From: Actinomycetota bacterium
GTDB taxonomy: Bacteria; Actinomycetota; UBA4738
Assembly (NCBI GenBank): GCA_036259835.1
Contig: DATABA010000031.1
Coordinates: 472 to 64,471, forward strand
Direction: 5' to 3'
DNA: 64,000 nucleotides
The position numbers were made by a program, and so were the translations under genes. Below are positions 51,018 to 64,000 of the stretch, piece by piece (within the stretch, counting starts at the first letter, position 1; every line of letters begins with the position of its first letter). Below the pieces are notes generated by a model. The model made no database searches and was not told the DNA's origin. It saw only the letters and a program-made list of their open reading frames with translations.

Positions 51018-51796
51018 GGCCCCGCTCCCGCCGCCGAGACCTCATCGGCGCTGCGGGGGTCGGACTGCTTGCGGGGTTTCTCTCGGGACTGTTTGGAGTG
51101 GGTGGCGGAATCCTGATCGTCCCGGGACTCGTTCTGCTCATGCGGATGAATCAGCGGCTTGCGCATGGAACTTCGCTCGCCGCCATCGTCCCCATCGCCG
51201 TGGCCGGCGTCGCCGGGTACGCCCTGGCTGACGCGGTCGACTGGACGGCCGGCGCCCTGCTGATCGTGGGCGCCGCGGCGGGGACGGTGGTCGGAACGAC
51301 AGCCCTCCGTGTCGTTCCCGAGAACTGGCTGAGAGCTCTGTTCGCGGCGTTTCTGGTTCTGGCCGCAGCGCGGCTGTTCCTTCCGGTCACACAGGCAATG
51401 GGCCGGGGAGCGATCGATCCAGGCGCCGTGATGGGGCTGGTCGGCATCGGCGTGTTGTCCGGAGCAGTGGCGGGGTTGCTCGGAGTTGGGGGCGGAATCG
51501 TCATCGTGCCCGCGCTGGTCCTGCTGTTCTCCCTGCCGGACCCGGTTGCCAAGGGGACGTCGCTCCTCGTCATCATCCCGACCGGCCTGATCGGGACTCT
51601 CAGCAACGTTCGAGCAAGAAACGCAAACCTCCCGGTGGCCGCGGTGGTCGGCGCGCTCGGAATCGTGTCGGCGTTCGGGGCGTCTCAGCTCTCAACGGTG
51701 CTTCCGGCGCGGCTATCGAGAATCCTCTTCGCGATCCTCCTTTTGGCGGTGGCCGCGCAGCTGTTGCTGCGGCTCAGACGCGGTGCGGCGAAGTAG
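51014..51796 (+). CDS. TauE/SafE-family sulfite/anion exporter
   Basis: 260 aa with 7-8 TM helices and a duplicated GxGGG motif (GLFGVGGGILIVPGL / GLLGVGGGIVIVPAL). GTGA overlap with the upstream stop. Confidence 0.8.
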   Translation: MRPRSRRRDLIGAAGVGLLAGFLSGLFGVGGGILIVPGLVLLMRMNQRLAHGTSLAAIVPIAVAGVAGYALADAVDWTAGALLIVGAAAGTVVGTTALRVVPENWLRALFAAFLVLAAARLFLPVTQAMGRGAIDPGAVMGLVGIGVLSGAVAGLLGVGGGIVIVPALVLLFSLPDPVAKGTSLLVIIPTGLIGTLSNVRARNANLPVAAVVGALGIVSAFGASQLSTVLPARLSRILFAILLLAVAAQLLLRLRRGAAK

Positions 51797-52226
51797 CCGA
51801 AGAAGTTCCCGCTTCTGAAAGTGCTTCCTGAAACACATCCCAGGCCAGAACGGCGCACTTGATGCGTACCGGGTACTTCACCACGCCCTTGAGCGCGATC
51901 AGGTCGCCGAATTCCTCTTCGTCCGGGTCGGAGCCGCCCTGCATCATGCTTCGGAACTCTTCGGTCAGGAACGCCGCCTCGTCGACGGTCTTCCCCTTCA
52001 CCGCTTCGGTCATCATCGAAGCGCTGGCCTGGCTGATCGAACATCCCTGGCCCTCGAACGTCACGTCGGCGACGCGGCCGTCGTCGAGGTGCGCGTGAAC
52101 GGTGATCTCATCGCCGCACAGCGGATTGTTCTTGTGGCACGTGAGCTCGGCGCCCGGAAGGTCTCGCTTGTTCCGGGGGTTCTTGTAGTGGTCGAGGATG
52201 ACCTCCTTGTAGAGGTCGTCAAGCAC
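51774..52226 (-). CDS. sufU: SUF Fe-S scaffold/sulfur-transfer protein SufU
   Basis: LYKEVILDHYKNPRNK.., ..NPLCGDEITV.., ..GQGCSISQASASMM... Confidence 0.9.
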   Translation of the reverse strand: MLDDLYKEVILDHYKNPRNKRDLPGAELTCHKNNPLCGDEITVHAHLDDGRVADVTFEGQGCSISQASASMMTEAVKGKTVDEAAFLTEEFRSMMQGGSDPDEEEFGDLIALKGVVKYPVRIKCAVLAWDVFQEALSEAGTSSATSPHRV

Positions 52227-53469
52227 CGAAGATCCTTTCCGCCTTCTCCAGTCCCTTCATGAGGGCGTCGACGTCCGCAAGCGTGTTGTAGACGTAGAAC
52301 GAGGCGCGGTTCGTCGCCGGAACCTCGAGGATCCGCATGAGCGGCTGCGCGCAGTGATGCCCCGCCCGAATGCACACCCCTTCCTGACCCAGGACCTGGG
52401 CGAGGTCGTGTGGGTGAATCTCCTTGAACCAGAACGACACGGCGCCTCCGCGGTTCGCCGTGTCGGTGGGGCCGAAGACCTCGGCACCGGCTTCTGTCAA
52501 CCGCTTGATGGCGTACGAGGCGAGCTCGTGCTCATGCTCTCTGACCGCGTCCATCCCGATCCGCTCCAGGTATTCGATGGCCGCGACCAAACCGATCTCC
52601 TGAGCGATGTTCATGGTCCCCGCCTCAAACTTCCACGGCGGTTCCTTGAACGTCGAGCGGTCCGGCAGGACGTCCAAAATCATCTCTCCGCCGCCGAAGA
52701 ACGGGTTCATCTCCTCGAGCAGCTCCAGTCGTCCGTACAGACCTCCGGACGCGGTCGGACCGAGCATCTTGTGTCCTGAGATGGTCAGGAAGTCGATGTC
52801 GAGCTCGGCGACGTTGACCGGACGGTGCGGGACGAGCTGGGCCCCATCCACGACGATCACGGCGCCAACGGCGTGCGCCGCCTCGGCGAGCTGCTTCAGG
52901 GGCGGCATCGTCCCGAGAACGTTCGAGTTCCCGGTAACGGAGACGATCTTCGTTCTATCCGTGATGAGCCCGTCCAGACCGGAGAGATCGAGCTCTCCTT
53001 CTTCGCCGAGGGGGATGAATTTCAGCGTCGCCCCGGTAGCGTGTGCTGCGAACTGCCAGGGGACGATGTTGGAGTGATGCTCGATCTCCGACAGAAGCAC
53101 CTGGTCGCCTTCTCGAAGCACCTTCCGCCCCCACCCATGCGCCACCAGGTTGATCGACTCGGTGGTCCCTCGGTTGAACACGATGCACGAGGGGTCCGGC
53201 GCGCCGACGAACCGGGCCAGCGTCCCGCGCGCGGCTTCGTATCGAGCCGTGGCCTCCTCGGCGAGCTCGTACACGGCGCGGTGGACGTTCGCGTTGTATC
53301 GCTCGTAGAACTCCCGCTCGGCATCGAGCACCTGACGGGGCTTCTGGGTGGTCGCCGCGCTGTCCAGGTAGACCAGCCGCTTGCCATGGAAGTCCTGCTG
53401 GAGGATGGGGAAATCGGCTTTGATTCGTTCGACGTCCAGCGCCCGCGACTGCTCGATGACCTTCGCCAT
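52219..53469 (-). CDS. sufS: Cysteine desulfurase SufS
   Basis: ..VYLDSAATTQKP.., PLP-Lys ..ISGHKMLGPT.., active-site ..RAGHHCAQPL... Confidence 0.9.
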   Translation of the reverse strand: MAKVIEQSRALDVERIKADFPILQQDFHGKRLVYLDSAATTQKPRQVLDAEREFYERYNANVHRAVYELAEEATARYEAARGTLARFVGAPDPSCIVFNRGTTESINLVAHGWGRKVLREGDQVLLSEIEHHSNIVPWQFAAHATGATLKFIPLGEEGELDLSGLDGLITDRTKIVSVTGNSNVLGTMPPLKQLAEAAHAVGAVIVVDGAQLVPHRPVNVAELDIDFLTISGHKMLGPTASGGLYGRLELLEEMNPFFGGGEMILDVLPDRSTFKEPPWKFEAGTMNIAQEIGLVAAIEYLERIGMDAVREHEHELASYAIKRLTEAGAEVFGPTDTANRGGAVSFWFKEIHPHDLAQVLGQEGVCIRAGHHCAQPLMRILEVPATNRASFYVYNTLADVDALMKGLEKAERIFGA

Positions 53470-53492
53470 GACCTAAAGCCTCCCGCTGAGCA

Positions 53493-54296
53493 CTAGCCTG
53501 CCACCGGCGCCGTCTCGATGCCAAGCTCCTTGCGGAGACCTTCGTAGCCCTTCTGCTCGAGCTCGTGAGCCAGCTCCGGCCCGCCGGACAGAACGATCCG
53601 GCCATCCATGAGCACGTGGATCTTGTCAGGAGTGATGTAGTTGAGAATCCGCTGGTAGTGGGTGATGAGGAGCACTCCGAGGCTTGGACCGATCAGCTGC
53701 TGCACACCACTCGCCACGGCCTTCAGCGAGTCGATGTCGAGCCCCGAATCGGTCTCGTCCAGGACTGCGATCTCGGGCTCCAGAACGGCGAGTTGGAGAA
53801 TCTCGTTCTTCTTCTTCTCCCCGCCTGAGAAGCCCTGGTTCACGTACCGGTTGACCATCTGATCTTCGATGCCCAGGAGGTTCATCTTCTCCTTGAGGCG
53901 CTTGCGAAAGGCCAGCGCGGATGTCTGCTCGCCCTTCACCGAGTTGTAGGCGGAGCGAAGGAAGTTCACCACCGACACGCCAGGGATCTCGGTCGGATAC
54001 TGGAAAGCCAGGAACAGCCCCATCTGCGCCCGCTGGTCGGGCCTCAGTCCGGTGACGTCCTGGCCCTTGAACAGGATCCGTCCGCCGGTGATTTCGTATC
54101 CCGGCCGGCCCATCAGGACGTTGGCCAGGGTCGACTTGCCGGACCCGTTTGGGCCCATGAGCGCGTGAACCTCACCCTGCCGGACGGTCAGGTCGATCCC
54201 CTTCAGGATCTGCTTACCCTCGACCTGAACGTGGAGGTCTCTGATCTCCAGCGTCGCGGTGCCCGTTGCTTCCATCGCTTCGGCTTTCTGTGCCAC
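53493..54296 (-). CDS. sufC: Fe-S cluster assembly ATPase SufC
   Basis: Walker A GPNGSGKST, ABC signature FSGGEKKK, Walker B AVLDETDSGLD. Confidence 0.9.
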   Translation of the reverse strand: MAQKAEAMEATGTATLEIRDLHVQVEGKQILKGIDLTVRQGEVHALMGPNGSGKSTLANVLMGRPGYEITGGRILFKGQDVTGLRPDQRAQMGLFLAFQYPTEIPGVSVVNFLRSAYNSVKGEQTSALAFRKRLKEKMNLLGIEDQMVNRYVNQGFSGGEKKKNEILQLAVLEPEIAVLDETDSGLDIDSLKAVASGVQQLIGPSLGVLLITHYQRILNYITPDKIHVLMDGRIVLSGGPELAHELEQKGYEGLRKELGIETAPVAG

Positions 54297-54614
54297 TTAT
54301 CTGTCCTCCAACTCGATCAGTATGGTGTCGGCTTCCACCTTCACTGGAAACGTCGCCACCGGAACCGTCGCCGGGAGGACGGTGGGCCGGCCGCTTCGAA
54401 GGTCGAACGTCGAGCCGTGTCGTGGGCACTCGATGGTCTCGTCGTCAACGTCCACTTCTCCCTCGGAAAGCGACGCCTCCGCGTGGGAACAAATGTCGTC
54501 CACCGCGAGAAACTCGCCCCCGATGTTGGCAACGGCGATCTCAATTCGATCGACAACGAATCGCCGCGCCTCCCCTTCCGGGATCTCCGTGGTCTTGCCC
54601 ACCTCACGCAGCAT
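54297..54614 (-). CDS. Rieske [2Fe-2S] ferredoxin-type protein
   Basis: 105 aa. CSH..x..CPRHG Rieske ligand motifs (DDICSHAEASL ... IECPRHGSTF). Confidence 0.8.
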   Translation of the reverse strand: MLREVGKTTEIPEGEARRFVVDRIEIAVANIGGEFLAVDDICSHAEASLSEGEVDVDDETIECPRHGSTFDLRSGRPTVLPATVPVATFPVKVEADTILIELEDR

Positions 54615-56007
54615 GGCCGGCCTCGTCGTCTTTCTTCTCGAGCTCGTCCGCGATGGCCTGCTCGAGCCCCTGTCGCACCTCCGGCAGCGTCACCCGGTCG
54701 AGCACTTCCTGGAAGAATCCGAACACCACCAGCCGTTCCGCCTCCTCGTACGGGATTCCCCGGCTCTGGATGTAGAACATCGTGTCCTCGTCGACGGGTC
54801 CGACGCTGGCGGCGTGTCCACACCGCACTGGATCGTTGGTCAGGATCTCCAGGTTCGGCACCGTGTGTGCCTTTGCCGTTTCGGAGAGCAGGATGTTCCG
54901 GTTCGTCTGGTACGCGTCGCACTTGTGAGCATCCCGCTGGATGATGACTGTGCCGGTATAGACCGCCCGAGACCGCCCCTTGAGGGCCCCCTTGTACAGC
55001 AGATCGCTCGCCGTTCGTGAACCCAGATGGTTCTGGATCGACCGGAAATCGAAGTGCTGATCCTCGTCGGCGAAGTAGAGACCGAGCATCTCGCTCGATC
55101 CGCCGTCGCCCTGCATCACGCTTTCGACTTCCGTGCGGGAAAGGCTCCCGCCGAACGCCACAACCAGAGAGCGCAGCTCCGCGTCGGGTGCGATGACGGC
55201 GTTCTGGACAGAAAGGTGGGTCACGCCGCGCCCCCAGTCCTGGAGTGAGACGTATCGGAGCTTCGACCCAGTTCCGAGATAGAGCTCCACGGCTGCGTCC
55301 GAAAGCACGCCTTCCAAGTCACGAGAGACGTATCGATCGATGAAGGTCAGCTCGGCGCCCTCGCCCAACACGATGATCGTGTGGGGAAACACCGCGAGGC
55401 GGTCACGGTCCACGTATGTGAGCGTTTGCAACGGCAGCTCGACGTGCACGCCATCGGGAACGTGGACGAAGGTGCCGCCCGTGCGAAAGGCTGCGTGGAG
55501 CGCGGAGAACTTGCTCCTCCACGGAGCCACTGCCTTGTGAAGGTGGGACTCGAGGCCGGAACTGTGCTGGCGAAGTGCTTCGTCTACCGACTGAAAAAGG
55601 ACGCCCTTCGACGCTTCGGCCGGGTCGAGGTGGGCCGTAATGACCGACGAGTTGTGTTGGATGGCCAGCCCGGATCGCTCCCCTACCGCCCCCGCTGCCC
55701 CGAGAATCTCCGGCCGGACGTCGTCGAGGTTGGCGGCGGACGGCTCCTCTGCGTACGGAATGAAGGGGGTGAGATCCAGATCCCGAAGGTCCGTGTAGCG
55801 CCATTCCTCAGTTTCCGGCGAAGGCATCGGCATGGCCTCGAACTGTTCGAACGCTAAAGTCCGAACGCCGTCGACAGCGACGCGCTGGCCATCCGGGGAC
55901 CAAGCTGTTGCGCCCCCCGCCTGCAGGGAAGGACCGGCGCCCTTCTTCGAGACGATTTCGGCGAGCGCTTCGCGCGTGAATCCGGTTGTCGTGGAAGTTT
56001 CGGCCAT
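54604..56007 (-). CDS. sufD: SufB/SufD-family Fe-S assembly protein, SufD-like
   Basis: The C-terminal block NILLSETAKAHTVPNLEILTNDPVRCGHAASVGPVDEDTMFYIQSRGI resembles SufD (..PQLEIYADDVKCSHGAT.G..D..Q.FYL.SRGI) more than SufB. Start taken at MAETST. Confidence 0.8.
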   Translation of the reverse strand: MAETSTTTGFTREALAEIVSKKGAGPSLQAGGATAWSPDGQRVAVDGVRTLAFEQFEAMPMPSPETEEWRYTDLRDLDLTPFIPYAEEPSAANLDDVRPEILGAAGAVGERSGLAIQHNSSVITAHLDPAEASKGVLFQSVDEALRQHSSGLESHLHKAVAPWRSKFSALHAAFRTGGTFVHVPDGVHVELPLQTLTYVDRDRLAVFPHTIIVLGEGAELTFIDRYVSRDLEGVLSDAAVELYLGTGSKLRYVSLQDWGRGVTHLSVQNAVIAPDAELRSLVVAFGGSLSRTEVESVMQGDGGSSEMLGLYFADEDQHFDFRSIQNHLGSRTASDLLYKGALKGRSRAVYTGTVIIQRDAHKCDAYQTNRNILLSETAKAHTVPNLEILTNDPVRCGHAASVGPVDEDTMFYIQSRGIPYEEAERLVVFGFFQEVLDRVTLPEVRQGLEQAIADELEKKDDEAGHAA

Positions 56008-56057
56008 GATCCCCCGACGGCCGGCTCTGGGATTGATTCGTTGACGTCCGCGCCGCT

Positions 56058-56090
56058 GGATTAATTCTATCAATTAGGTAGGAATTACCT
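56058..56090. promoter_or_regulatory. AT-rich island in the sufD / DNA-ligase divergent intergenic region (putative promoters or operator)
   Basis: ggATTAATTCTATCAATTAGGTAGGAATTAcc stands out in otherwise GC-rich DNA. AATT(A) occurs three times about 10 nt apart. There is an inverted repeat TAATTC(56062-67)/GAATTA(56082-87). TAGAAT reads on the minus strand and TACCTT on the plus strand as -10 candidates. Confidence 0.3.
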
Positions 56091-56122
56091 TGGTGGTTGC
56101 TGCGGTCTCGCACAATCACTAC

Positions 56123-57640
56123 GTGCTGCTTCAGGAGATCGCCGATACGTCCGCTGGGGTTGCCTCCACCCGATCCCGGCTGGCCAAGATCGAGCGGCTG
56201 GCGGACTGCCTTCGCCAGCTCCGCCCGGAGGAAGTTCCCATCGCAGTCGCTTATCTGGCTGGCGAGCTTCCCCAGGGATCGATCGGCATCGGGTGGGCGT
56301 CTCTCCGCGACCTTCCGCCACCGGCCCGGACGCCGACGCTCGAATTGCTCGAGGTCGATGCCACGCTGCGGCGCGTACAGGCGACCACCGGGACAGGATC
56401 GCAAGCCGCGAGGCGCCAGCAGCTGCATGGGATGTTCGGGCGAGCCACCGACGACGAACGCAAATTCCTGACCGGACTTCTGCTCGGTGAGCTCAGGCAG
56501 GGCGCGTTGGAAGGCGTGATGGTCGAAGCGGTCGCCAGGGCGGCCGGCCTTCCCGGCTCGGATGTCCGAAGAGCCGCGATGCTGGCCGGCGATCTCGGCC
56601 CCGTGGCCGAAGCGGCCGTCGCGAAAGGGGCACAGGGACTGGCTCGGTTCCGCCTGACCGTCCTGCGACCGATCCAGCCGATGCTGGCGCACTCCGCCGA
56701 TAGTCTCCAGGATGCGCTCTCCCGAACCCGAGCCGCCGCGGTCGAGTGGAAGTTCGACGGCGCCCGCGTCCAGGTTCATCGGCTCGGCGGCGAGGTGCGG
56801 GCGTTCACCCGGAACCTCGCCGACATGACGGATCGCGTTCCCGAAGTCGTCCAGGCCGTCGCGGCGCTGCCGGTCGAGTCGATCGTGTTGGACGGAGAGG
56901 CGATCGCGCTTCACGGCGATGGCCGGCCCCATCCCTTTCAGGACACGATGAGCCGGTTCGGAACACAAGTGCCGGAGCAACAGCTGGCGAAAGTCCGGCT
57001 CTCCGCGTTCTTCTTCGACTGCCTTCATCTCAATGGAGAGGATCTGATCGACCGACCGACGACCGAGCGGTTCGAGGCGCTGCGCGCCGCGGTGCCGGAC
57101 GAAGTGTTGATTCCGCGAATCGTCCCGCACGATCCGACCGAGGCGGAGCCTTTCTTCGACCGGGCGCTCCAACAGGGGCACGAGGGCGTGATGGTGAAGG
57201 CGCTCGACGCACCGTACGAAGCGGGACGGCGCGGTGCGAGCTGGCTGAAAGTGAAGCGCGCCAAGACGCTCGACCTGGTGATCCTGGCCGCAGAGTGGGG
57301 GCACGGCCGCCGTCACAAGTGGCTGAGCAACCTACATCTGGGCGCACAGGATCCCGCGTCGGGTCAGTTCGTCATGCTCGGGAAGACCTTCAAGGGAATG
57401 ACCGATCAGATGCTGACATGGCAGACCGAGCGACTGCTCGAGCTCGAAACACATCGCGACAGCTACACGGTCTACGTTCAACCGGAGATCGTGGTGGAGG
57501 TGGCCTTCGATGGGCTCCAGCGGAGCACCCGGTATCCCGCTGGCCTGGCGCTCCGGTTCGCCCGGATCAAGGGATATCGGCCAGACAAGCGTCCCGAGGA
57601 GGCAGACACCATCGAAACCGTCCGCGCGCTGGCCGGCTGA
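56123..57640 (+). CDS. ATP-dependent DNA ligase
   Basis: Adenylation motif I VEWKFDGARVQVH (KxDG), ..EGVMVK.., ..WLKVK... The conserved N-terminus (V)LLQEIADTS..TRSRLAKI suggests a GTG start at 56123 rather than the track TTG at 56090. Confidence 0.85.
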   Translation: MLLQEIADTSAGVASTRSRLAKIERLADCLRQLRPEEVPIAVAYLAGELPQGSIGIGWASLRDLPPPARTPTLELLEVDATLRRVQATTGTGSQAARRQQLHGMFGRATDDERKFLTGLLLGELRQGALEGVMVEAVARAAGLPGSDVRRAAMLAGDLGPVAEAAVAKGAQGLARFRLTVLRPIQPMLAHSADSLQDALSRTRAAAVEWKFDGARVQVHRLGGEVRAFTRNLADMTDRVPEVVQAVAALPVESIVLDGEAIALHGDGRPHPFQDTMSRFGTQVPEQQLAKVRLSAFFFDCLHLNGEDLIDRPTTERFEALRAAVPDEVLIPRIVPHDPTEAEPFFDRALQQGHEGVMVKALDAPYEAGRRGASWLKVKRAKTLDLVILAAEWGHGRRHKWLSNLHLGAQDPASGQFVMLGKTFKGMTDQMLTWQTERLLELETHRDSYTVYVQPEIVVEVAFDGLQRSTRYPAGLALRFARIKGYRPDKRPEEADTIETVRALAG

Positions 57641-57661
57641 GCCGGGCCGAATATCCTTCGA

Positions 57662-60283
57662 GTGATCATGGACCTGCCGACCGGGATCGTGACCTTTCTC
57701 TTCACCGACATCGAAGGGTCGACGAACCTCGCTCGAACGCTCGGATCTCGGTGGCCGCACGTCCTGGAAGAGCACAACGCGATCCTTCGAAACGCCATTC
57801 GCGCCCACGATGGCATCGACATCCGTACAGAAGGCGACGCCTTCTTCGCGGTGTTCCGCTCCCCCGGCGATGCGGTTCGAGCGGCGGCGACAGCTCAGCG
57901 GGTGCTGGCTGACCGTGAGTGGCCTGCGGACGGCCCGATTCGGGTCCGGATGGGCATGCACACAGGCGAAGGACGCCTGGCCGGTGACGACTACGTGGGT
58001 CTCGACGTCCACCGCGCTGCTCGGATCGCCGCTGCCGGGCACGGAGGGCAGGTGCTGCTCTCCGACGCGGCAAGGGTTTTGGTCGGTGACGGACTCACCG
58101 ACGGGCTCACGTTGCGCGACCTGGGGCAGCATCGTCTGAAGGACTTCGACGACCCGCAGCACATCTACCAGCTCGAAATCGAAGGCCTCGAGAGGGAATT
58201 CCCTCCGCTCAAGACCCGAGACATGCCGACACGGCTGCCGGTGCAGCTAACGTCGTTCATCGGCCGGAAGCGCGAGGTGCACCAGGTGAGTGAGCTGCTC
58301 GAGCGAAGCCGCCTGGTCACGCTCACCGGCCCGGGCGGGACCGGGAAGACGCGGCTCGCGATAGAGGCGGCAACCCGCATAACGGAGCGCTTCCCCGACG
58401 GTGTCTACTTCGTGGATCTCTCCCCCACCCGGGACCCGGCACTGGTGCCCTCGGCGATGGTCACCGCCCTAGGCCTGAAACAGCTTCCGGATCGGGGTGC
58501 ATTGGAATCGGTCACCGAGTACCTCAGGAATCGCGTTGCCCTTCTGATTCTCGACAACTTCGAGCAGGTAACCGAAGCATCAGGCGTCGCTCGAGTGGTG
58601 TTAGAGGAGTCGCCTTCGACCAACCTGCTGGTTACAAGCAGGGTGCACCTTGACTTACCCGGAGAGCATGAATTCCCCGTCCCACCGCTCGACGTTCCCG
58701 AACTGAACGGAGACGTCGGCGCCATTTCACAGAACGAGGCGGTGGAGCTGTTCGTTCATCGGGCCCGGGCCGTGCGGCCGTCGTTCGAAATCAGCGATCA
58801 GAACGCCCGGTCGATCGCAGAGGTCTGCGCCCGACTCGACGGACTGCCGCTGGCGATCGAGCTGGCCGCGGCGCAAACTCGCCTGCTGTCGCCGTCCGAG
58901 CTGCTCCAACGACTGCAACAGCGCCTGTCCGGACTCAGCACGGGTTCTCGAAACGTGCCCGAACGCCAGCGAACCCTCCGGAGCACCATCGAATGGAGCT
59001 ACGAGCTCTTGGAACCCGCGGACCGAAGGCTCTTTGCGCGACTCGGCGTTTTTGCGGGGGGCGGCACATTCGAATCGATTGAGGCCGTTTGCAATCCAGC
59101 AACAGACCTTGGTGTGGAGACACTTGAAGGCCTTGCGTCCCTGATCGGCAAGAGCCTCCTCCGCCGCATGGAGTTCCCTGAAGGATCCCGGTTCACGATG
59201 TTGGAAACCATCCGGGATTACGCGAGGGAACGCCTCGAGGCCGAGTTCGATCTCGACGACACAGAACGGCGACACGCCGGTTACTTCGCCACTCTGGCGG
59301 AGGAGCGCGGACCGACAGTTCGGGGAGCGACCGCCGACATCGTCGAGGCAGTGGTCCGGGACATCGACAATTTTCGCGCTGCCCTGTCGTGGTCCCTCCG
59401 AATGGACCAGGCTCAGTTCGGGCTTCGGATCGCCGCGGCGCTGTGGAGGGTCTTTGTCGAGACAGGACACTTGAGGGAGGCCGTCGAATCGCTGGAATCG
59501 CTCCTGGCACTACCCTCCGCGAAGGCTAGGGACCGGATCCGTGCCAGCGGGGTCATGGCTCTCGGATCTCTCCTCTACTGGCAGACGGATTATCGCGGGA
59601 CCCAAGACCGATACGAGGAGGCCCTTTCGATCTTCGAAGAGGTGGGCGACGAAACGGAACGGATGCAGGCGCTCATGTACCTCGCGTACTCCTTTGTGGC
59701 GCAGGAGGACCCGGACAATGCGCTTCGGACGATCGAGAAGGCACTTGCTCTCAGCGAATTTGTCACCGATGAAGCGCTTCTTGCGGAACTGACGGGCCTC
59801 AGAGGAGGCACTCATATCACACGAGGCGAGTACGACGAGGGCCTCAGATGGTTGGAGGAATCCCTCGAGCGGTTCGAAGCTGCCGGAGCGTTGTTGTGGT
59901 CCAACGAGACCCGGGCCCGGATCAGCAGCCTGTACCGAATGCAGGGGCGAGTCGATGAAGCGGAGGCTTACCTACGACAGTCCTTCGAGGTTTATCAGAT
60001 GGTTGGGGGCCTGACGAACTCGGGCGCGGTCGCCCTCCAGTTCGCGGCTGTGGCGACGGCTCGCGGAGATCACGAACGGGCCATGCGCCTCGCCGGGTTC
60101 GCGGAGAAGGTGTCCGAACAACTCGGAGGAAGGCCTCCCACCGCGCTCTTACTCATCCCCGACTTTCGAGCGGAGGCCGCGACCACCCTCGATGAGGCGA
60201 CCATTGATCGCCTCTGGAACGAGGGCAAGTCCATGGATCTGGAAGAGGCTGCTCACTACATGCTGCGAGAGAAGCAGGAATGA
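57662..60283 (+). CDS. Class III nucleotidyl-cyclase domain - NB-ARC/STAND P-loop ATPase - TPR protein, paralog 1
   Basis: Cyclase motifs FLFTDIEGST, TEGDAFFAVF, RMGMHTGEG, VHRAARIAAAGHGGQVLLS. P-loop GPGGTGKTRLA, Walker B LLILDNFEQV, VTSR. The C-terminal ~450 aa are helical and TPR-like. The start could be the ATG at 57668. Confidence 0.8.
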   Translation: MIMDLPTGIVTFLFTDIEGSTNLARTLGSRWPHVLEEHNAILRNAIRAHDGIDIRTEGDAFFAVFRSPGDAVRAAATAQRVLADREWPADGPIRVRMGMHTGEGRLAGDDYVGLDVHRAARIAAAGHGGQVLLSDAARVLVGDGLTDGLTLRDLGQHRLKDFDDPQHIYQLEIEGLEREFPPLKTRDMPTRLPVQLTSFIGRKREVHQVSELLERSRLVTLTGPGGTGKTRLAIEAATRITERFPDGVYFVDLSPTRDPALVPSAMVTALGLKQLPDRGALESVTEYLRNRVALLILDNFEQVTEASGVARVVLEESPSTNLLVTSRVHLDLPGEHEFPVPPLDVPELNGDVGAISQNEAVELFVHRARAVRPSFEISDQNARSIAEVCARLDGLPLAIELAAAQTRLLSPSELLQRLQQRLSGLSTGSRNVPERQRTLRSTIEWSYELLEPADRRLFARLGVFAGGGTFESIEAVCNPATDLGVETLEGLASLIGKSLLRRMEFPEGSRFTMLETIRDYARERLEAEFDLDDTERRHAGYFATLAEERGPTVRGATADIVEAVVRDIDNFRAALSWSLRMDQAQFGLRIAAALWRVFVETGHLREAVESLESLLALPSAKARDRIRASGVMALGSLLYWQTDYRGTQDRYEEALSIFEEVGDETERMQALMYLAYSFVAQEDPDNALRTIEKALALSEFVTDEALLAELTGLRGGTHITRGEYDEGLRWLEESLERFEAAGALLWSNETRARISSLYRMQGRVDEAEAYLRQSFEVYQMVGGLTNSGAVALQFAAVATARGDHERAMRLAGFAEKVSEQLGGRPPTALLLIPDFRAEAATTLDEATIDRLWNEGKSMDLEEAAHYMLREKQE

Positions 60284-62910
60284 GCAAGCCGCCCACGGGG
60301 ACGGTCACGTTCCTGTTCACCGATATCGAAGGGTCTACCAAGCTGCTTCACGACCTCGGCGAGGGATATCGCCAGGTCCAAAGCGACCATCAGCGGCTCA
60401 TGCGTGAGGCGATCGCAGCGTACGGCGGACATGAGGTGCGAACGGAAGGTGATTCGTTCTTTGTGGTTTTCCGATCCGCACCAGACGCGATGGCCTGCGC
60501 CGTTGCAGCTCAACGGGCGCTGGCGGCCCATCCGTGGTCGCACGGAGAGCCGCTGCGCGTCCGCATGGGGATGCACACCGGCGAAGGGCGGCTCCTGGGC
60601 CGAGACTACTTGGGCATCGACGTGAACCGCGCGGCCCGGATCGCAGCCGCGGGCCACGGCGGGCAGGTCCTCTTGTCGGATGCGACAAGGGTCCTGGTAG
60701 CCGACGCTGTTCCAGGGGGGGTGACGCTTCGGGATCTGGGGAAGCACCGCCTGAAGGACTTCGACGAGCCACGGAGCGTCCACCAGATCGTGATCGATGG
60801 GCTCGAGGCCAAGTTCCCTCCCCTCAAGACCCTCGAGATTCCCTCGAACCTGCCTGTGCAGCTCACAACCTTCGTTGGACGAGAGCGCGAGCTTGGCCAG
60901 ATCGGGGACGTTCTGGGTCGAAGGCGGCTTGTCACGCTGACGGGACCCGGAGGAAGCGGCAAGACCCGTCTGGCGATTCAGGCAGCCAGCCAGATGATGG
61001 AGCGGTTCCCGGACGGGGTCTTCTTCGTCGATCTCTCGGCGATCCGGGATGCGCGCCTGGTGCCCTCGGCGATCACCCTCTCGCTGGATCTGAAGGAGCG
61101 ACCCGGCCGCGGTCCCTGGGAAACCCTGAAGGAGCACTTTCAAGGTCGGACCTCCCTGCTCATCCTGGACAACTTCGAGCAGGTGATCGACGCGTCCGAC
61201 ATCGCTCGAGCCGTCCTGGAGACTGCCCCGAAAACCACCGTGCTCGTCACCAGCCGGGTCCGCCTCGACCTTCCAGGTGAGCAGGACTTTCCGGTCCCCC
61301 CACTGGAAGTGCCATGGCCTGAAGATGTCGGTTCTCTCGCGGGCAACGAATCCGTGGAACTGTTCCTTGATCGAGCTCGGGCGGTCCAGCCGTCCTTTGA
61401 GCTCACCAAAGACAACGCCCAGGCCGTTGCTGCGATCTGTACCCGGCTCGACGGGTTGCCCCTGGCCATCGAACTGGCTGCGGCGCAGGTGCGACTTCTC
61501 GCACCCGGCGAACTGCTGGCGCGCTTGGATCGCCGACTTTCGACGCTTGGAACGGGGTCTCGCCACGCCCCGGAGCGTCAGCGCACGCTCCGGCGGACGA
61601 TCGAATGGAGTTACGAACTCCTTCAGCCGGAGGAGCGCACCGTCTTTGCCCGGCTTGCCGTGTTCGCCGGAGGCGCCACCGTGGCCGCCATCGAGGAGGT
61701 ATGCAATCCCATGACGGACCTAGGCGTGACCGCCCTCGAAGTCTTGGCGTCGCTGATCGACAAGAGTCTCGTCCGTCGAGTGGAGTTCCCAGAAGGATCT
61801 CGGTTCTCGATGCTCGAGACCATCCACGAGTACGCGCGAGACCGCCTGGAAGCCGAATTCGATCTCGAGGACACTTCGCGCCGACACGCCGAGTTCTTTG
61901 CTCGCGATGCCGAGAAACTCGCCGCGCAGATTCGTGGTCCGGGCGGAGCCGCGCTCATGCCGGCAATGGTCCGCGACCTGGACAATTTCCGGGCGGCAAT
62001 GTCCTGGTCTCTTCGGATGGACCGAGCCGATCTGGGCCTGCCGATCTGCACGGTGCCGTGGAGATTCTTCCTGGAAGCGGGCCATCTGAGCGAATGGCGC
62101 GAAGCGCTCCAGTCGCTGTTGACGCTTCCCTCGGCAGCACCTCGGGATCGAATCCGCGCCGAAGCGGTCCTCGCCCTCGGGTCTCTCCTCTATTGGCAGG
62201 CGGACTACCCCTCGAGCAAACAGAAGTATGAAGAGGCCTTGGAGATGTACCTGGAGATCGGCGACGACCGAGGTGTGGCGGAGGCCCTCGCCGATCTCGC
62301 CTACGTCACCCTGGCGCAGGACGATCCCGACGCCGCCCTCCCGTTTATCGAAAAGGGATTGGATGCCGCCCGCCGGTGTCGAGACCTGGCCAGAGAAGCC
62401 GAACTTGCCGGACTGTTTGGCATCGCCCATTTTCAACGCGGGGAGTATGACGCTGCGCTCGCAGCCCTGAAGGAATCGATGGCAGGGTTCGAGACTGCTC
62501 CCACAAACGCCGGATACTGGCTGAACGAGACGAAAGTTCGAATCGGCTCCGTCTATCGGATGGCTGGGCGGTTGGATGACGCCGAGCATCATTTCCGTCA
62601 AGCGTTGATTGCCTATCGAGCCGATGCCGATGCCGGCCTTCCGAGCGCGGGTGCCGTGACGATTCAGCTGGCCGGTGTGGCGGCGGCTCGTGGAGACCAT
62701 GAGCGATCCCTTCGACTCGGCGGATTCGTCGAAGCCATCGCCGACCGCCTGGGCGGGATACTGCCGCCAGCGCTCATGCGAGTGCCCGACCTGAAAGCGA
62801 CGGCCCGGGAAAGCCTGGATGAGGCTACGGTCGAGCGTCTGTGGCGGGAAGGAAAAGCCATGCATACGGACCAAGCCTTGTCATACGCCCTCGGCGAAGA
62901 GACGCCATGA
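60280..62910 (+). CDS. Class III nucleotidyl-cyclase domain - NB-ARC/STAND ATPase - TPR protein, paralog 2
   Basis: Same architecture as paralog 1 (FLFTDIEGST, TEGDSFFVVF, VNRAARIAAAGHGGQVLLS, GPGGSGKTRLA, LLILDNFEQV). ATGA overlap with the paralog 1 stop. Confidence 0.8.
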   Translation: MSKPPTGTVTFLFTDIEGSTKLLHDLGEGYRQVQSDHQRLMREAIAAYGGHEVRTEGDSFFVVFRSAPDAMACAVAAQRALAAHPWSHGEPLRVRMGMHTGEGRLLGRDYLGIDVNRAARIAAAGHGGQVLLSDATRVLVADAVPGGVTLRDLGKHRLKDFDEPRSVHQIVIDGLEAKFPPLKTLEIPSNLPVQLTTFVGRERELGQIGDVLGRRRLVTLTGPGGSGKTRLAIQAASQMMERFPDGVFFVDLSAIRDARLVPSAITLSLDLKERPGRGPWETLKEHFQGRTSLLILDNFEQVIDASDIARAVLETAPKTTVLVTSRVRLDLPGEQDFPVPPLEVPWPEDVGSLAGNESVELFLDRARAVQPSFELTKDNAQAVAAICTRLDGLPLAIELAAAQVRLLAPGELLARLDRRLSTLGTGSRHAPERQRTLRRTIEWSYELLQPEERTVFARLAVFAGGATVAAIEEVCNPMTDLGVTALEVLASLIDKSLVRRVEFPEGSRFSMLETIHEYARDRLEAEFDLEDTSRRHAEFFARDAEKLAAQIRGPGGAALMPAMVRDLDNFRAAMSWSLRMDRADLGLPICTVPWRFFLEAGHLSEWREALQSLLTLPSAAPRDRIRAEAVLALGSLLYWQADYPSSKQKYEEALEMYLEIGDDRGVAEALADLAYVTLAQDDPDAALPFIEKGLDAARRCRDLAREAELAGLFGIAHFQRGEYDAALAALKESMAGFETAPTNAGYWLNETKVRIGSVYRMAGRLDDAEHHFRQALIAYRADADAGLPSAGAVTIQLAGVAAARGDHERSLRLGGFVEAIADRLGGILPPALMRVPDLKATARESLDEATVERLWREGKAMHTDQALSYALGEETP

Positions 62911-64000
62911 CGAAACTGCCAACCGGGACCGTTACCTTCCTGTTCACCGATATCGAAGGCTCCACGAAGCTTTTTCACGAACTCGGCGATCGGTATCGCG
63001 AAGTCCAGCGTGATCATCAGCGGCTCATGCGTGAGGCGATTGCGTTGGGTGAGGGGCACGAGATGCGAACAGAGGGCGACTCATTCTTCGTGGCCTTTCC
63101 GTCAGCTGCGCGCGCGGTGGAGGCGGTGGTTGCGGCTCAGCGGGCGCTGGCGGACCACCCTTGGTCGCATGGGAGGCCGCTGCGAGTCCGCATGGGCATG
63201 CATACCGGCGAAGGTCGTCTGCTGGGCGAGGACTACCTGAGCATCGACGTGAACCGCGCCGCGCGGATCGCTTCGGCCGGGCACGGCGGCCAAGTGCTTC
63301 TCTCCGACGCCACGCGCACTCTCGCCGAGACCGCCCTGCCCCAAGGCGTGTCGATTGCCGATCTCGGCAGACACGGGCTGAAGGACTTCGACGAACCCCA
63401 ACGGCTCTATCAGCTCGTCATCGACGGACTTCAGTCGGAGTTCCCTCCCCTCAAGACGCTGGAGGCGCCGACCAACCTTCCCGCGGAGGTGACCTCATTC
63501 GTCGGGCGGGAACAGGAAGTCAGGGAGGTCGAGGAGCTCCTGGAGTCGTCGCGGCTCGTGACGCTGACGGGTCCGGGGGGTTCGGGCAAGACCCGGCTGT
63601 CGATCCGGGTCGGCTCGAACGTGCTCGAGGAAGACCGGTTCCGCGACGGCGTCTTCTTCGTCGAACTCGCGGGCACGACCGATGCGCAGATGGTTCCGAG
63701 CGTGATCGCTTCGGCACTGGGCATCCGAGAGGAAGGGCCAAGGCCGCTTCTGGAAACGCTTCAGAGTGAGCTCCGTCACCGGACTGCACTCTTGATCCTC
63801 GACAACTTCGAGCAGGTGATCGAGGCGAGCCGCGACATCAGCACGCTTCTCGCTGCAGCTCCACGCGTTCGGTTCCTTGTGACGAGCCGGGGCCCTTTGC
63901 GTATTCAGGGGGAACGGGAATTCCCGGTTCCGCCCCTCCCGCTTCCGGAAACGGCTGAGCTTTCTCGCGACTCAGACGTCAGCGACTACGGCGCCGTTGC
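62907..64000 (+). CDS. Class III nucleotidyl-cyclase domain - NB-ARC/STAND ATPase protein, paralog 3 (3'-partial, runs off the window)
   Basis: MTKLPTGTVTFLFTDIEGST.., TEGDSFFVAF, VNRAARIASAGHGGQVLLS, GPGGSGKTRLS, LLILDNFEQV. ATGA overlap with the paralog 2 stop. The frame stays open to the window end and is not listed in the ORF track. Confidence 0.8.
   Translation, partial: MTKLPTGTVTFLFTDIEGSTKLFHELGDRYREVQRDHQRLMREAIALGEGHEMRTEGDSFFVAFPSAARAVEAVVAAQRALADHPWSHGRPLRVRMGMHTGEGRLLGEDYLSIDVNRAARIASAGHGGQVLLSDATRTLAETALPQGVSIADLGRHGLKDFDEPQRLYQLVIDGLQSEFPPLKTLEAPTNLPAEVTSFVGREQEVREVEELLESSRLVTLTGPGGSGKTRLSIRVGSNVLEEDRFRDGVFFVELAGTTDAQMVPSVIASALGIREEGPRPLLETLQSELRHRTALLILDNFEQVIEASRDISTLLAAAPRVRFLVTSRGPLRIQGEREFPVPPLPLPETAELSRDSDVSDYGAV

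Follow-up and report, generated by a model that had tools for sequence, protein, structure and literature searches.

What three adjacent genes for cyclase-like proteins sense, what signal they emit and whether they act in parallel or jointly is the question raised by one end of a 64,000-nucleotide stretch of Actinomycetota DNA (contig DATABA010000031.1; hereafter the window). The list of open reading frames (ORFs) contains three successive long frames at positions 57662-64000, and they encode head-to-tail paralogs. A preliminary description of this DNA had read each protein as a class III nucleotidyl cyclase-like head joined to a STAND nucleoside triphosphatase (NTPase) and a long C-terminal part resembling tetratricopeptide repeats (TPRs). 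Our preferred answer, to which we assign a probability of roughly 0.5, is that the locus encodes ligand-gated cyclases that are activated by oligomerisation, carry different sensors and share a cyclic nucleoside monophosphate (cNMP) output. Position numbers are window coordinates, and all three genes lie on the + strand. Related loci are denoted by L numbers and database proteins by P numbers. The features of the locus are as follows.

57668..60283, + strand: copy 1 (A-type), 871 residues from the ATG at 57668, 873 residues if the GTG at 57662 is used
57683-58141, + strand: copy 1 cyclase domain, residues ~8-160 (873-residue numbering)
58283-59005, + strand: copy 1 NB-ARC NTPase, residues ~208-448 (873-residue numbering)
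59339-60121, + strand: copy 1 TPR region, residues ~560-820 (873-residue numbering)
up to 60280, + strand: copy 1 conserved C-terminal helices
60280..60283, + strand: ATGA stop/start overlap of copies 1 and 2
60280..62910, + strand: copy 2 (chimera), 876 residues from the ATG
60298-60795, + strand: copy 2 cyclase fold, residues 7-172, from the structure model
60637..60834, + strand: chimera breakpoint zone of copy 2, residues ~120-185
60868-61815, + strand: copy 2 NTPase, helical and winged-helix module, residues ~197-512, from the structure model
61816-62751, + strand: copy 2 TPR-like helical repeats, residues 513-824, from the structure model
residues 825-876 of copy 2, + strand: terminal helices, from the structure model
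62907..62910, + strand: ATGA stop/start overlap of copies 2 and 3
62907..64000, + strand: copy 3 (B-type), first 364 of 876 codons, frame open to the window end
62919-63356, + strand: copy 3 cyclase domain, residues ~5-150
63489, + strand: copy 3 NTPase start, residue ~195

The architecture of cyclase, STAND NTPase and TPRs is as previously described. Pfam profiles detected Guanylate_cyc at 45.1, 50.7 and 45.2 bits in copies 1-3 (cut-off 21.9), NB-ARC at 25-35 bits in all three copies (cut-off 23.5) and TPR_12 at 62-69 bits in both complete copies (cut-off 30.1). In NCBIfam, the NTPase part partly resembles AfsR, its best match (88-100 bits in the two complete copies), and the cyclase part partly resembles LipJ (Rv1900c). 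An AlphaFold model of copy 2, built on an alignment of 118 sequences, reached a predicted local distance difference test score (pLDDT) of 91.9 and a predicted template modelling score (pTM) of 0.80. When the model was compared with the PDB by Foldseek, the best overall match was PH0952 (6mfv, E 8e-15), a STAND protein whose sensor consists of TPRs. The NTPase module matched Apaf-1, CED-4 and the resistosomes of plant nucleotide-binding leucine-rich repeat receptors (NLRs). The N-terminus matched the cyclase domains of Ma1120 and Rv1900c with target-normalised template modelling scores of 0.87-0.92 and root-mean-square deviations of ~2-3 Å, and sequence comparison likewise ranks these domains closest among solved structures (E 1e-22). 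In the model, helices 450-494 and the hairpin 499-510 make up the winged helix of the STAND module, and paired helices from 513 to 824 form the C-terminal repeat sensor region.

The start of copy 1 is placed at the ATG at 57668 (MDLPTG...) in homologs and in database entry P0004, while the ORF list uses the GTG at 57662. Copy 3 is predicted to end ~1.5 kb past the window edge. Its full length is given by database protein P0036 (876 residues), whose residues 1-364 match the window translation. P0036 sits on the same Actinomycetota metagenome-assembled genome (MAG) contig as P0001, an exact copy 2, and P0004, copy 1, and it has TPRs and the C-terminal motif common to copies 1 and 2. With the third protein completed in this way, the three coupled-looking paralogs that had been noted earlier are confirmed at 871/873, 876 and 876 residues. 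The genes are real and not chance ORFs, as the more than 8000 homologs, the low ratios of non-synonymous to synonymous substitution rates (dN/dS) and the pLDDT of the copy 2 model attest.

Both ATGA overlaps are present. The letters at the junctions are ...GGAATGAGC and ...GCCATGACG, each with the overlap, and the full junction sequences are GCAGGAATGAGC (60280-60283) and CGCCATGACGAA (62907-62910). A 4-bp overlap is tight packing and permits translational coupling, but the stoichiometric co-expression that had been read from it is not shown by the overlap. Other arrays of the family have intergenic gaps of +3 to +154 nt.

Whether the heads can be cyclases was judged from residue conservation in an alignment of 131 family members. 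The second metal-binding Asp (D58) and the transition-state Arg (R120) are invariant (131/131), and the first metal-binding Asp (D15) is found in 130 of the 130 sequences covering its column; all three copies have it. The NTPase is similarly conserved, with G225, K228 and T229 of Walker A invariant in 131/131 and D297 of Walker B present in all 130 sequences that cover the column. All three copies have GPGG[ST]GKTR as Walker A and hhhhDNFEQ as Walker B; in copy 2 these read GPGGSGKTR and LILDNFEQ. The canonical cyclase positions read D/R/D/D/H/R in copy 1 and D/R/D/D/N/R in copies 2 and 3. The transition-state Asn, at position 116, is thus retained in copies 2 and 3 and replaced by His in copy 1. 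Across the alignment, this position is N in 96/131 and H in 35/131, and the His forms group in one coherent subclade, to which copy 1, its orthologs and both genes of L082 belong. Asp109, which pairs with the specificity Lys, is D in 107/131. The specificity Lys of Ma1120 aligns with Arg54, which is R in 108/131 and otherwise S, G, H, K, D or A. Complementary catalytic decay between the copies, the signature of an obligate heterodimer, was looked for and not found, as each copy keeps both Asp residues and the Arg. Therefore, nothing in these residues forces heterodimerisation.

The same residues bear on the possibility that the domain makes no messenger and is a nucleotide-binding or dimerisation module, so that the proteins would be TPR scaffolds or regulators acting via protein contacts. 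The Arg at the Lys position and the missing transition-state Asn of copy 1 are consistent with such a role, and a role as regulators instead of cyclases has been suggested for the mycobacterial proteins Mclx2 and Mclx3, which are without canonical residues (PMC4452763). However, the conservation of both metal Asp residues and the transition-state Arg throughout, and of Asp109 in most members, is difficult to account for unless the domain is catalytic. The canonical Asn is retained in copies 2 and 3, cNMP-binding genes adjoin family genes in relatives, and the protein has no other output domain. We consider this alternative improbable and give it the least weight of those discussed here. The invariance of the catalytic Asp/Asp/Arg set also speaks against the dead cyclase domains that the preliminary description had allowed for.

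Another Actinomycetota MAG (L081) contains the same triplet with 4-bp overlaps, and its middle gene is 87% identical to copy 2. Against the L081 orthologs, dN/dS is 0.05-0.23 in every domain where it is measurable, which shows purifying selection; the synonymous rate (dS) is saturated in the copy 1 TPR region. Positive selection in the TPRs was not seen in this comparison, with dN/dS at most 0.23 where measurable. The genes are maintained, together with their catalytic centres, and are probably functional. The synonymous divergence itself is uneven. In copy 2, dS between the window and L081 (57668-62907 vs L081:407-5655) is 0.26-0.45 over the NTPase, winged helix, TPRs and tail and 0.79 in the cyclase, and in copy 1 it is 0.8-1.7. 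This unevenness suggests recombination or gene conversion after the window and L081 lineages split.

If the heads are cyclases, the next question is whether another output follows the repeats. No GerE or any other helix-turn-helix (HTH) domain was found by Pfam at E <= 0.1 in copies 1 and 2, and no DNA-binding fold was among the top 50 Foldseek matches of the copy 2 model. All three copies (copy 3 as seen via P0036) stop right after a terminal motif common to the family. A precomputed Pfam match to HTH_77 (PF25872) is present on all relatives, where it sits between the AAA and TPR matches; it is not a C-terminal output domain, because its position is that of the winged helix of the STAND module in the model.

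For the family at large, we surveyed 165 related loci from species-representative genomes and JGI metagenomes, which were scanned with family-built profiles. Among the profile-complete homologs, 125/135 end directly after the terminal motif (...ERAWxEGRAMxxEEAxAYA), and the other 10/135 have a C-terminal extension of 73-111 residues. Each of the ten extensions, one of which comes from a Mycobacterium genome, proved to be a GerE/LuxR HTH domain (E 1e-17 to 1e-21). The ready detection of GerE in these homologs serves as a positive control, and the absence of a LuxR HTH from the copies, which had been inferred by eye, is borne out. That absence had been presented as a peculiarity of the locus; it is instead the majority state. 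Because most complete homologs end without an HTH, the family core is cyclase-STAND-TPR, and the mycobacterial type with an HTH (Mclx) is a minority variant. A cryptic HTH in the last ~55 residues was also considered and rejected, since the motif occurs in the HTH-bearing homologs as well, where GerE comes after it.

The reason for having three copies can be approached through their divergence. Copy 2 shares 60% identity with copy 1 across 871 residues and 65% with copy 3 across the 347 residues that the window covers. By domain, the window copies share 60-76% identity in the cyclase and 28-53% in the TPR region. The gene pairs in L082, L083 and L001 behave alike, with 72-87% in the cyclase vs 28-38% in the TPRs, and family-wide the cyclase is the most conserved domain and the TPRs are the least. 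The pattern is one of like putative effector heads on diversified putative sensors. The three copies most likely sense different inputs, and the domain-wise divergence favours a diversified sensor set over a hetero-oligomeric sensor, the two options named in the preliminary description. The heads are alike and the TPRs strongly divergent; therefore, different inputs would converge on one messenger.

A mechanism for such a set can be proposed by analogy with established STAND and class III cyclase biology, from which the ligand gating, the activation by oligomerisation and the identity of the messenger are taken. A ligand on the TPR array would lift autoinhibition, and the NTPase module would then swap ADP for ATP and oligomerise. 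Oligomerisation would draw the cyclase domains together. The active sites of class III cyclases form only across the dimer interface of two subunits, so this proximity would turn on cyclic-nucleotide synthesis. The product is probably a purine cNMP; its specificity cannot be deduced, because Arg replaces the adenine-specifying Lys. The output would be a diffusible messenger read by cNMP-binding proteins encoded elsewhere, rather than DNA binding.

The middle gene gives a view of how the triplet arose. Over residues 1 to ~120, copy 2 is 74-89% identical to the copy 3 lineage and 43-67% identical to the copy 1 lineage, and from residue ~180 on its preference switches to the copy 1 lineage. When 130 family sequences are ranked by similarity to copy 2, copy 3 is 7th for the cyclase and 94th-99th for the rest, and copy 1 is 108th for the cyclase and 5th-7th for the rest. 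At diagnostic sites, where the A and B lineages are each fixed but different, copy 2 agrees with B at 17 and with A at 2 in residues 1-125; in residues 186-876 it agrees with A at 87 and with B at 9. Column resampling returned these affinities of the head and the body in 2000/2000 replicates each way, and the middle ortholog in L081 has the same pattern. By these sites, copy 2 is a chimera of a copy-3-type cyclase head and a copy-1-type NTPase-TPR body. The triplet fits unequal crossing-over in an older A-B pair, which would give the order A, B-head/A-body, B. Alike, duplicated overlapping junctions would follow from such an event, and the overlap indeed falls in the same alignment column at the two window junctions, the two of L081 and the one of L082; it is ATGA in all of these except for GTGA at the first L081 junction.

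The order of the types is older than the window lineage, because it recurs elsewhere. In a neighbour-joining tree, the only tree type built and one whose A/B clade labels rest on the 120 best matches of copy 2, copy 1 clusters with the leading gene of the L082 pair and copy 3 with the trailing one. In L167 and L169, judged from the NTPase module and TPRs, the first gene is nearer copy 1 and the last nearer copy 3. Other pairs join other clades, and some join members of one clade.

This recurrent order is the main reason to weigh an obligate hetero-oligomer, in which the A-type, B-type and chimeric proteins would assemble into a mixed STAND oligomer in the manner of paired sensor and helper NLRs, or A and B cyclase domains would pair. 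In one form of this proposal, the A/B cyclase heterodimer would have one canonical and one His-containing site, and the overlaps would serve co-production. The A-first/B-last order in the distant L082, L167 and L169, the overlapping junction kept at one column in the window, L081 and L082, and the two-subunit construction of class III sites are all consistent with it, as is the His-for-Asn exchange, which marks a conserved subclade and not random decay. However, a working homodimer would be possible for every copy, as each keeps both metal Asp residues and the Arg, and both genes of the L082 pair are of the His type. Single genes account for 155 of the 167 chains, and single-gene loci exist in syntenic position. 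The middle copies in L167 and L169 are split or truncated, and other pairs combine members of the same clade. We regard the obligate hetero-oligomer as rather unlikely. A fuller version is unlikely: it would combine an obligate mixed A/B STAND oligomer and asymmetric cyclase dimers with a cNMP read by dedicated proteins, such as the TLC/MFS-HEAT-cNMP_binding type described below, maybe as an immune or stress alarm. If true, it would amount to a second-messenger synthase under STAND control, of which we found no description in the literature searched.

The distribution of arrays was followed through the survey. In the 166 sources scanned, the family gene stands alone 155 times, in a pair 10 times and in a triplet twice (the window and L132), and this count of 155 against 12 understates the arrays because many contigs are short. 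The preliminary description had treated the array as special, and this stands in part: most homologs sampled are single genes, but pairs and triplets recur in the closest relatives. The homologs are not merely scattered single genes, given the triplet of L081, the junction of L166 and the arrays in L082, L083, L001, L167, L169 and L132. L166 has orthologs of copy 2 (86-88%) and copy 3 (81-82%) joined by an ATGA overlap. At the syntenic site, defined by the Suf operon, then a DNA ligase or a gene of unknown function, then the family gene, the P0003 contig and L085 have one family gene. Copy number there ranges from one to three, since single genes, pairs and triplets are seen across relatives. 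L167 and L169 have three-gene arrays with a damaged middle gene. The middle gene of L167 (2925-5560) is split into ORFs of 408 and 470 residues, and that of L169 (7922-9232) has 436 residues, with the cyclase, P-loop and terminal motif kept and most of the middle gone. These may be decaying copies or assembly errors.

If the output is a diffusible cNMP, readers may be encoded near some family genes, and this was found in relatives. In L082, 4 nt after the pair, lies a gene for a 1015-residue protein that begins with a membrane part, continues with HEAT repeats and ends in a cNMP_binding domain. The same HEAT-cNMP_binding gene stands directly after the arrays in L167 and L169 and after the single gene in L099. 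Its N-terminus is a multi-pass membrane region with weak matches to TLC ATP/ADP translocases or MFS transporters, and the protein has 936 homologs at E <= 1e-20, mostly in Actinomycetota MAGs. It is a candidate messenger reader, and to our knowledge no member of this type has been characterised. A stand-alone cNMP_binding gene also lies <200 nt upstream of a family gene in 11 loci, on the same strand in 8 (23-69 nt) and divergently in 3, often with a second, divergent cNMP_binding gene beside it. Loci with such two-gene cassettes, 23-69 nt upstream of a lone family gene, come from Chloroflexia genomes and from contigs of soil metagenomes. A Crp-type regulator is encoded 0.8 kb downstream of the family gene in L055. 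Of the cNMP_binding domains found in the flanks (±10 kb), half are no more than 0.7 kb away from the family gene; the counts are not independent, because the loci are partly related to each other. The neighbouring genes are the following.

L082:15265-18312: HEAT-cNMP_binding gene, ~1000 residues
L167:8216-11152: HEAT-cNMP_binding gene, ~1000 residues
L169:11858-14800: HEAT-cNMP_binding gene, ~1000 residues
L099:2562-5543: HEAT-cNMP_binding gene, ~1000 residues
L008:8998-9959: two-gene cNMP_binding cassette, one gene divergent and one co-directional
L018:8905-9942: two-gene cNMP_binding cassette, same arrangement
L091:2322-3328: two-gene cNMP_binding cassette, same arrangement
L109:2279-3198: two-gene cNMP_binding cassette, same arrangement
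L117:3215-4246: two-gene cNMP_binding cassette, same arrangement
L019, L025 and L113: further two-gene cNMP_binding cassettes

Several observations weigh against ligand-gated cyclases with different sensors and a shared messenger. The whole 64-kb window contains no cNMP-binding ORF. In L166, which serves as the nearest stand-in for the DNA downstream of the window, a glyoxalase gene in convergent orientation comes after the array. Arg54 stands in place of the adenine-selecting Lys, copy 1 has His116, and activity and substrate are not readable from such sequence features. The conserved A-first/B-last order could mean that the copies act jointly and not in parallel. Finally, the literature searched contained no characterised full-length cyclase-STAND-TPR protein. 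In addition, none of the 120 best homologs of the L082 HEAT-cNMP_binding protein is encoded on the contig of the window.

The surroundings of the array were examined for signs of conflict or defence. Upstream on the - strand (51774-56073) lie genes for SufBD, a Rieske protein, SufC, cysteine desulfurase and NifU, and TauE, MDMPI_N and MOSC genes are also found upstream. The Rieske [2Fe-2S] gene (54297-54614) is located between SufBD and SufC, and the same arrangement is present in the P0003 contig and L085. The gene next to the array is the following.

56090-57640, + strand: ATP-dependent DNA ligase (DNA_ligase_A_N/M/C), ending 27 nt before copy 1

The ligase gene may share a transcript with copy 1. 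In the P0003 contig, a ligase gene is likewise followed by a cyclase gene after a 28-nt gap, and in L084 a convergent ligase gene lies downstream and a LigD primase-polymerase gene upstream of a single copy; this adjacency may be plain synteny. A scan of 55800-64000 gave no promoter-like sites and 3 terminator-like sites against a shuffle mean of 5.1, and such a scan is uninformative for an actinobacterium of 65% G+C. Within the array itself, it gave neither a promoter-like site nor a terminator-like site that convinces. The context of the array is one of core-genome, housekeeping genes and not a defence island.

An immune function deserves weighing, because the order of effector, NTPase and repeats matches the logic of Avs and NLR-like sensors. 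The TPRs would bind proteins of phages or other invaders, and the cNMP would raise the alarm by switching on a cNMP-binding effector, as in Pycsar or Pucsar. The low conservation of the TPRs, the paralog arrays with copy-number variation at one syntenic site and the cNMP-binding genes adjoining family genes in relatives are compatible with this. One single-copy relative, L085, stands beside a type I restriction subunit and toxin-antitoxin genes and is the sole defence-like neighbourhood among the loci examined. There (L085:12735-18761), the family gene lies next to an HsdR-like gene fused to Schlafen/AlbA_2, to toxin-antitoxin genes of the PIN and Phd/YefM types and to a small cyclase gene that stands alone. 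A preprint predicts an immune clade of STAND-fused cyclases, its clade 1, with fusion to AP-ATPase/NACHT-type NTPases (bioRxiv 10.64898/2026.08.12.744502). The idea of a STAND-fused cyclase as an effector, put forward in the preliminary description, is thus already raised there. However, in that preprint the immune clades were selected by fast-evolving cyclase domains, whereas the cyclase is the most conserved domain of the present family. PADLOC matches in the window were only weak and partial: PycC models reached 14-21 bits across 60-70 residues and mad8 reached 17-25 bits, and Avs models did not match. The window context is Suf, ligase and transporter genes, and dN/dS in the TPRs is at most 0.23 where measurable. 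The neighbouring cNMP-binding proteins of relatives are stand-alone, HEAT-membrane or Crp-type, and none is a TIR or small transmembrane killer. An immune role therefore appears decidedly unlikely for this locus, and we retain the set of cyclases with different sensors as our preferred account.

The locus is an ordinary member of a very large, already annotated family of soil-bacterial signalling proteins and no special case. The figure of more than 8000 homologs at E <= 1e-10 is a lower bound from a word-indexed search; most of the matches listed have ~870-880 residues, and many are named 'predicted ATPase/class 3 adenylate cyclase'. An exhaustive search of 50%-identity representatives gave 67,736 at E <= 1e-30, STAND-TPR proteins without a cyclase included. 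Each of the best 150 representatives scores below E 1e-170, and some four fifths are 860-930 residues long. Most hosts are Actinomycetota and Chloroflexota MAGs; Dormibacterota, Myxococcota and others also occur. P0251 (3933 residues) and P0381 and P0385 (1600-1700 residues) have several matched stretches or an NTPase-TPR part far from the N-terminus, and they may be fused multi-module versions of the family.

New in this study are the chimeric origin proposed for the triplet, the conserved A/B order and the cNMP-binding neighbours in relatives. In soil Actinomycetota and Chloroflexota, the cluster representatives of the family number in the tens of thousands. If STAND oligomerisation turns on a class III cyclase, NLR-like sensing would be linked to cyclic-nucleotide signalling, and the Mclx proteins of mycobacteria, the virulence-linked Rv0386 among them, would become easier to interpret as well. 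The locus supplies three natural variants (A-type, B-type and A/B chimera) for questions of input specificity and of head pairing across paralogs.

The closest known relatives are the Mclx proteins of Mycobacterium (Rv0386, Rv1358 and Rv2488c), which consist of a cyclase, a central AAA/NB-ARC domain and a LuxR HTH (PMC4452763). Rv0386 has been divided into cyclase, MalT/ATPase, TPR and LuxR parts (bioRxiv 10.1101/2024.03.06.583649), and in the literature searched activity is described for it alone (PMC4452763). The kinship with the Rv0386 type that had been named in the preliminary description is real, as the Mycobacterium homolog L079 aligns across residues 5-732 at 38% identity. Homology extends over the cyclase, NTPase and TPR parts, and the family profile covers L079 to position 685 of 687. 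The same terminal motif precedes the HTH, and copy 1 resembles Mclx2 and Mclx3 in being without the transition-state Asn. However, the window proteins end ~75-110 residues earlier and have no GerE; therefore, the cyclase is their only recognisable output.

In Pycsar and Pucsar, a cyclase makes a cNMP that is read by a cNMP-binding partner, and cNMP-binding genes adjoin family genes in relatives of the window. The window itself differs in its weak PycC matches, slowly evolving cyclase, lack of a TIR or small transmembrane effector and location outside a defence island. It differs from Avs systems in having no Avs profile match and Suf, TauE, MOSC and DNA ligase genes as neighbours. PH0952 of Pyrococcus (6mfv), AfsR-like NB-ARC-TPR regulators and the MalT/LAL regulators have the same module of NTPase, helical domain, winged helix and TPRs as the window proteins, but their effector is a SARP or LuxR DNA-binding domain or none, whereas an N-terminal cyclase takes its place here. 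Ma1120 of M. avium and Rv1900c of M. tuberculosis have the same metal Asp pair, specificity Asp and Arg as the window cyclases, and Ma1120 differs in having the specificity Lys where the window proteins have Arg. Compared with the stand-alone Ma1120 and Rv1900c domains, the window proteins add ~700 residues of regulatory module.

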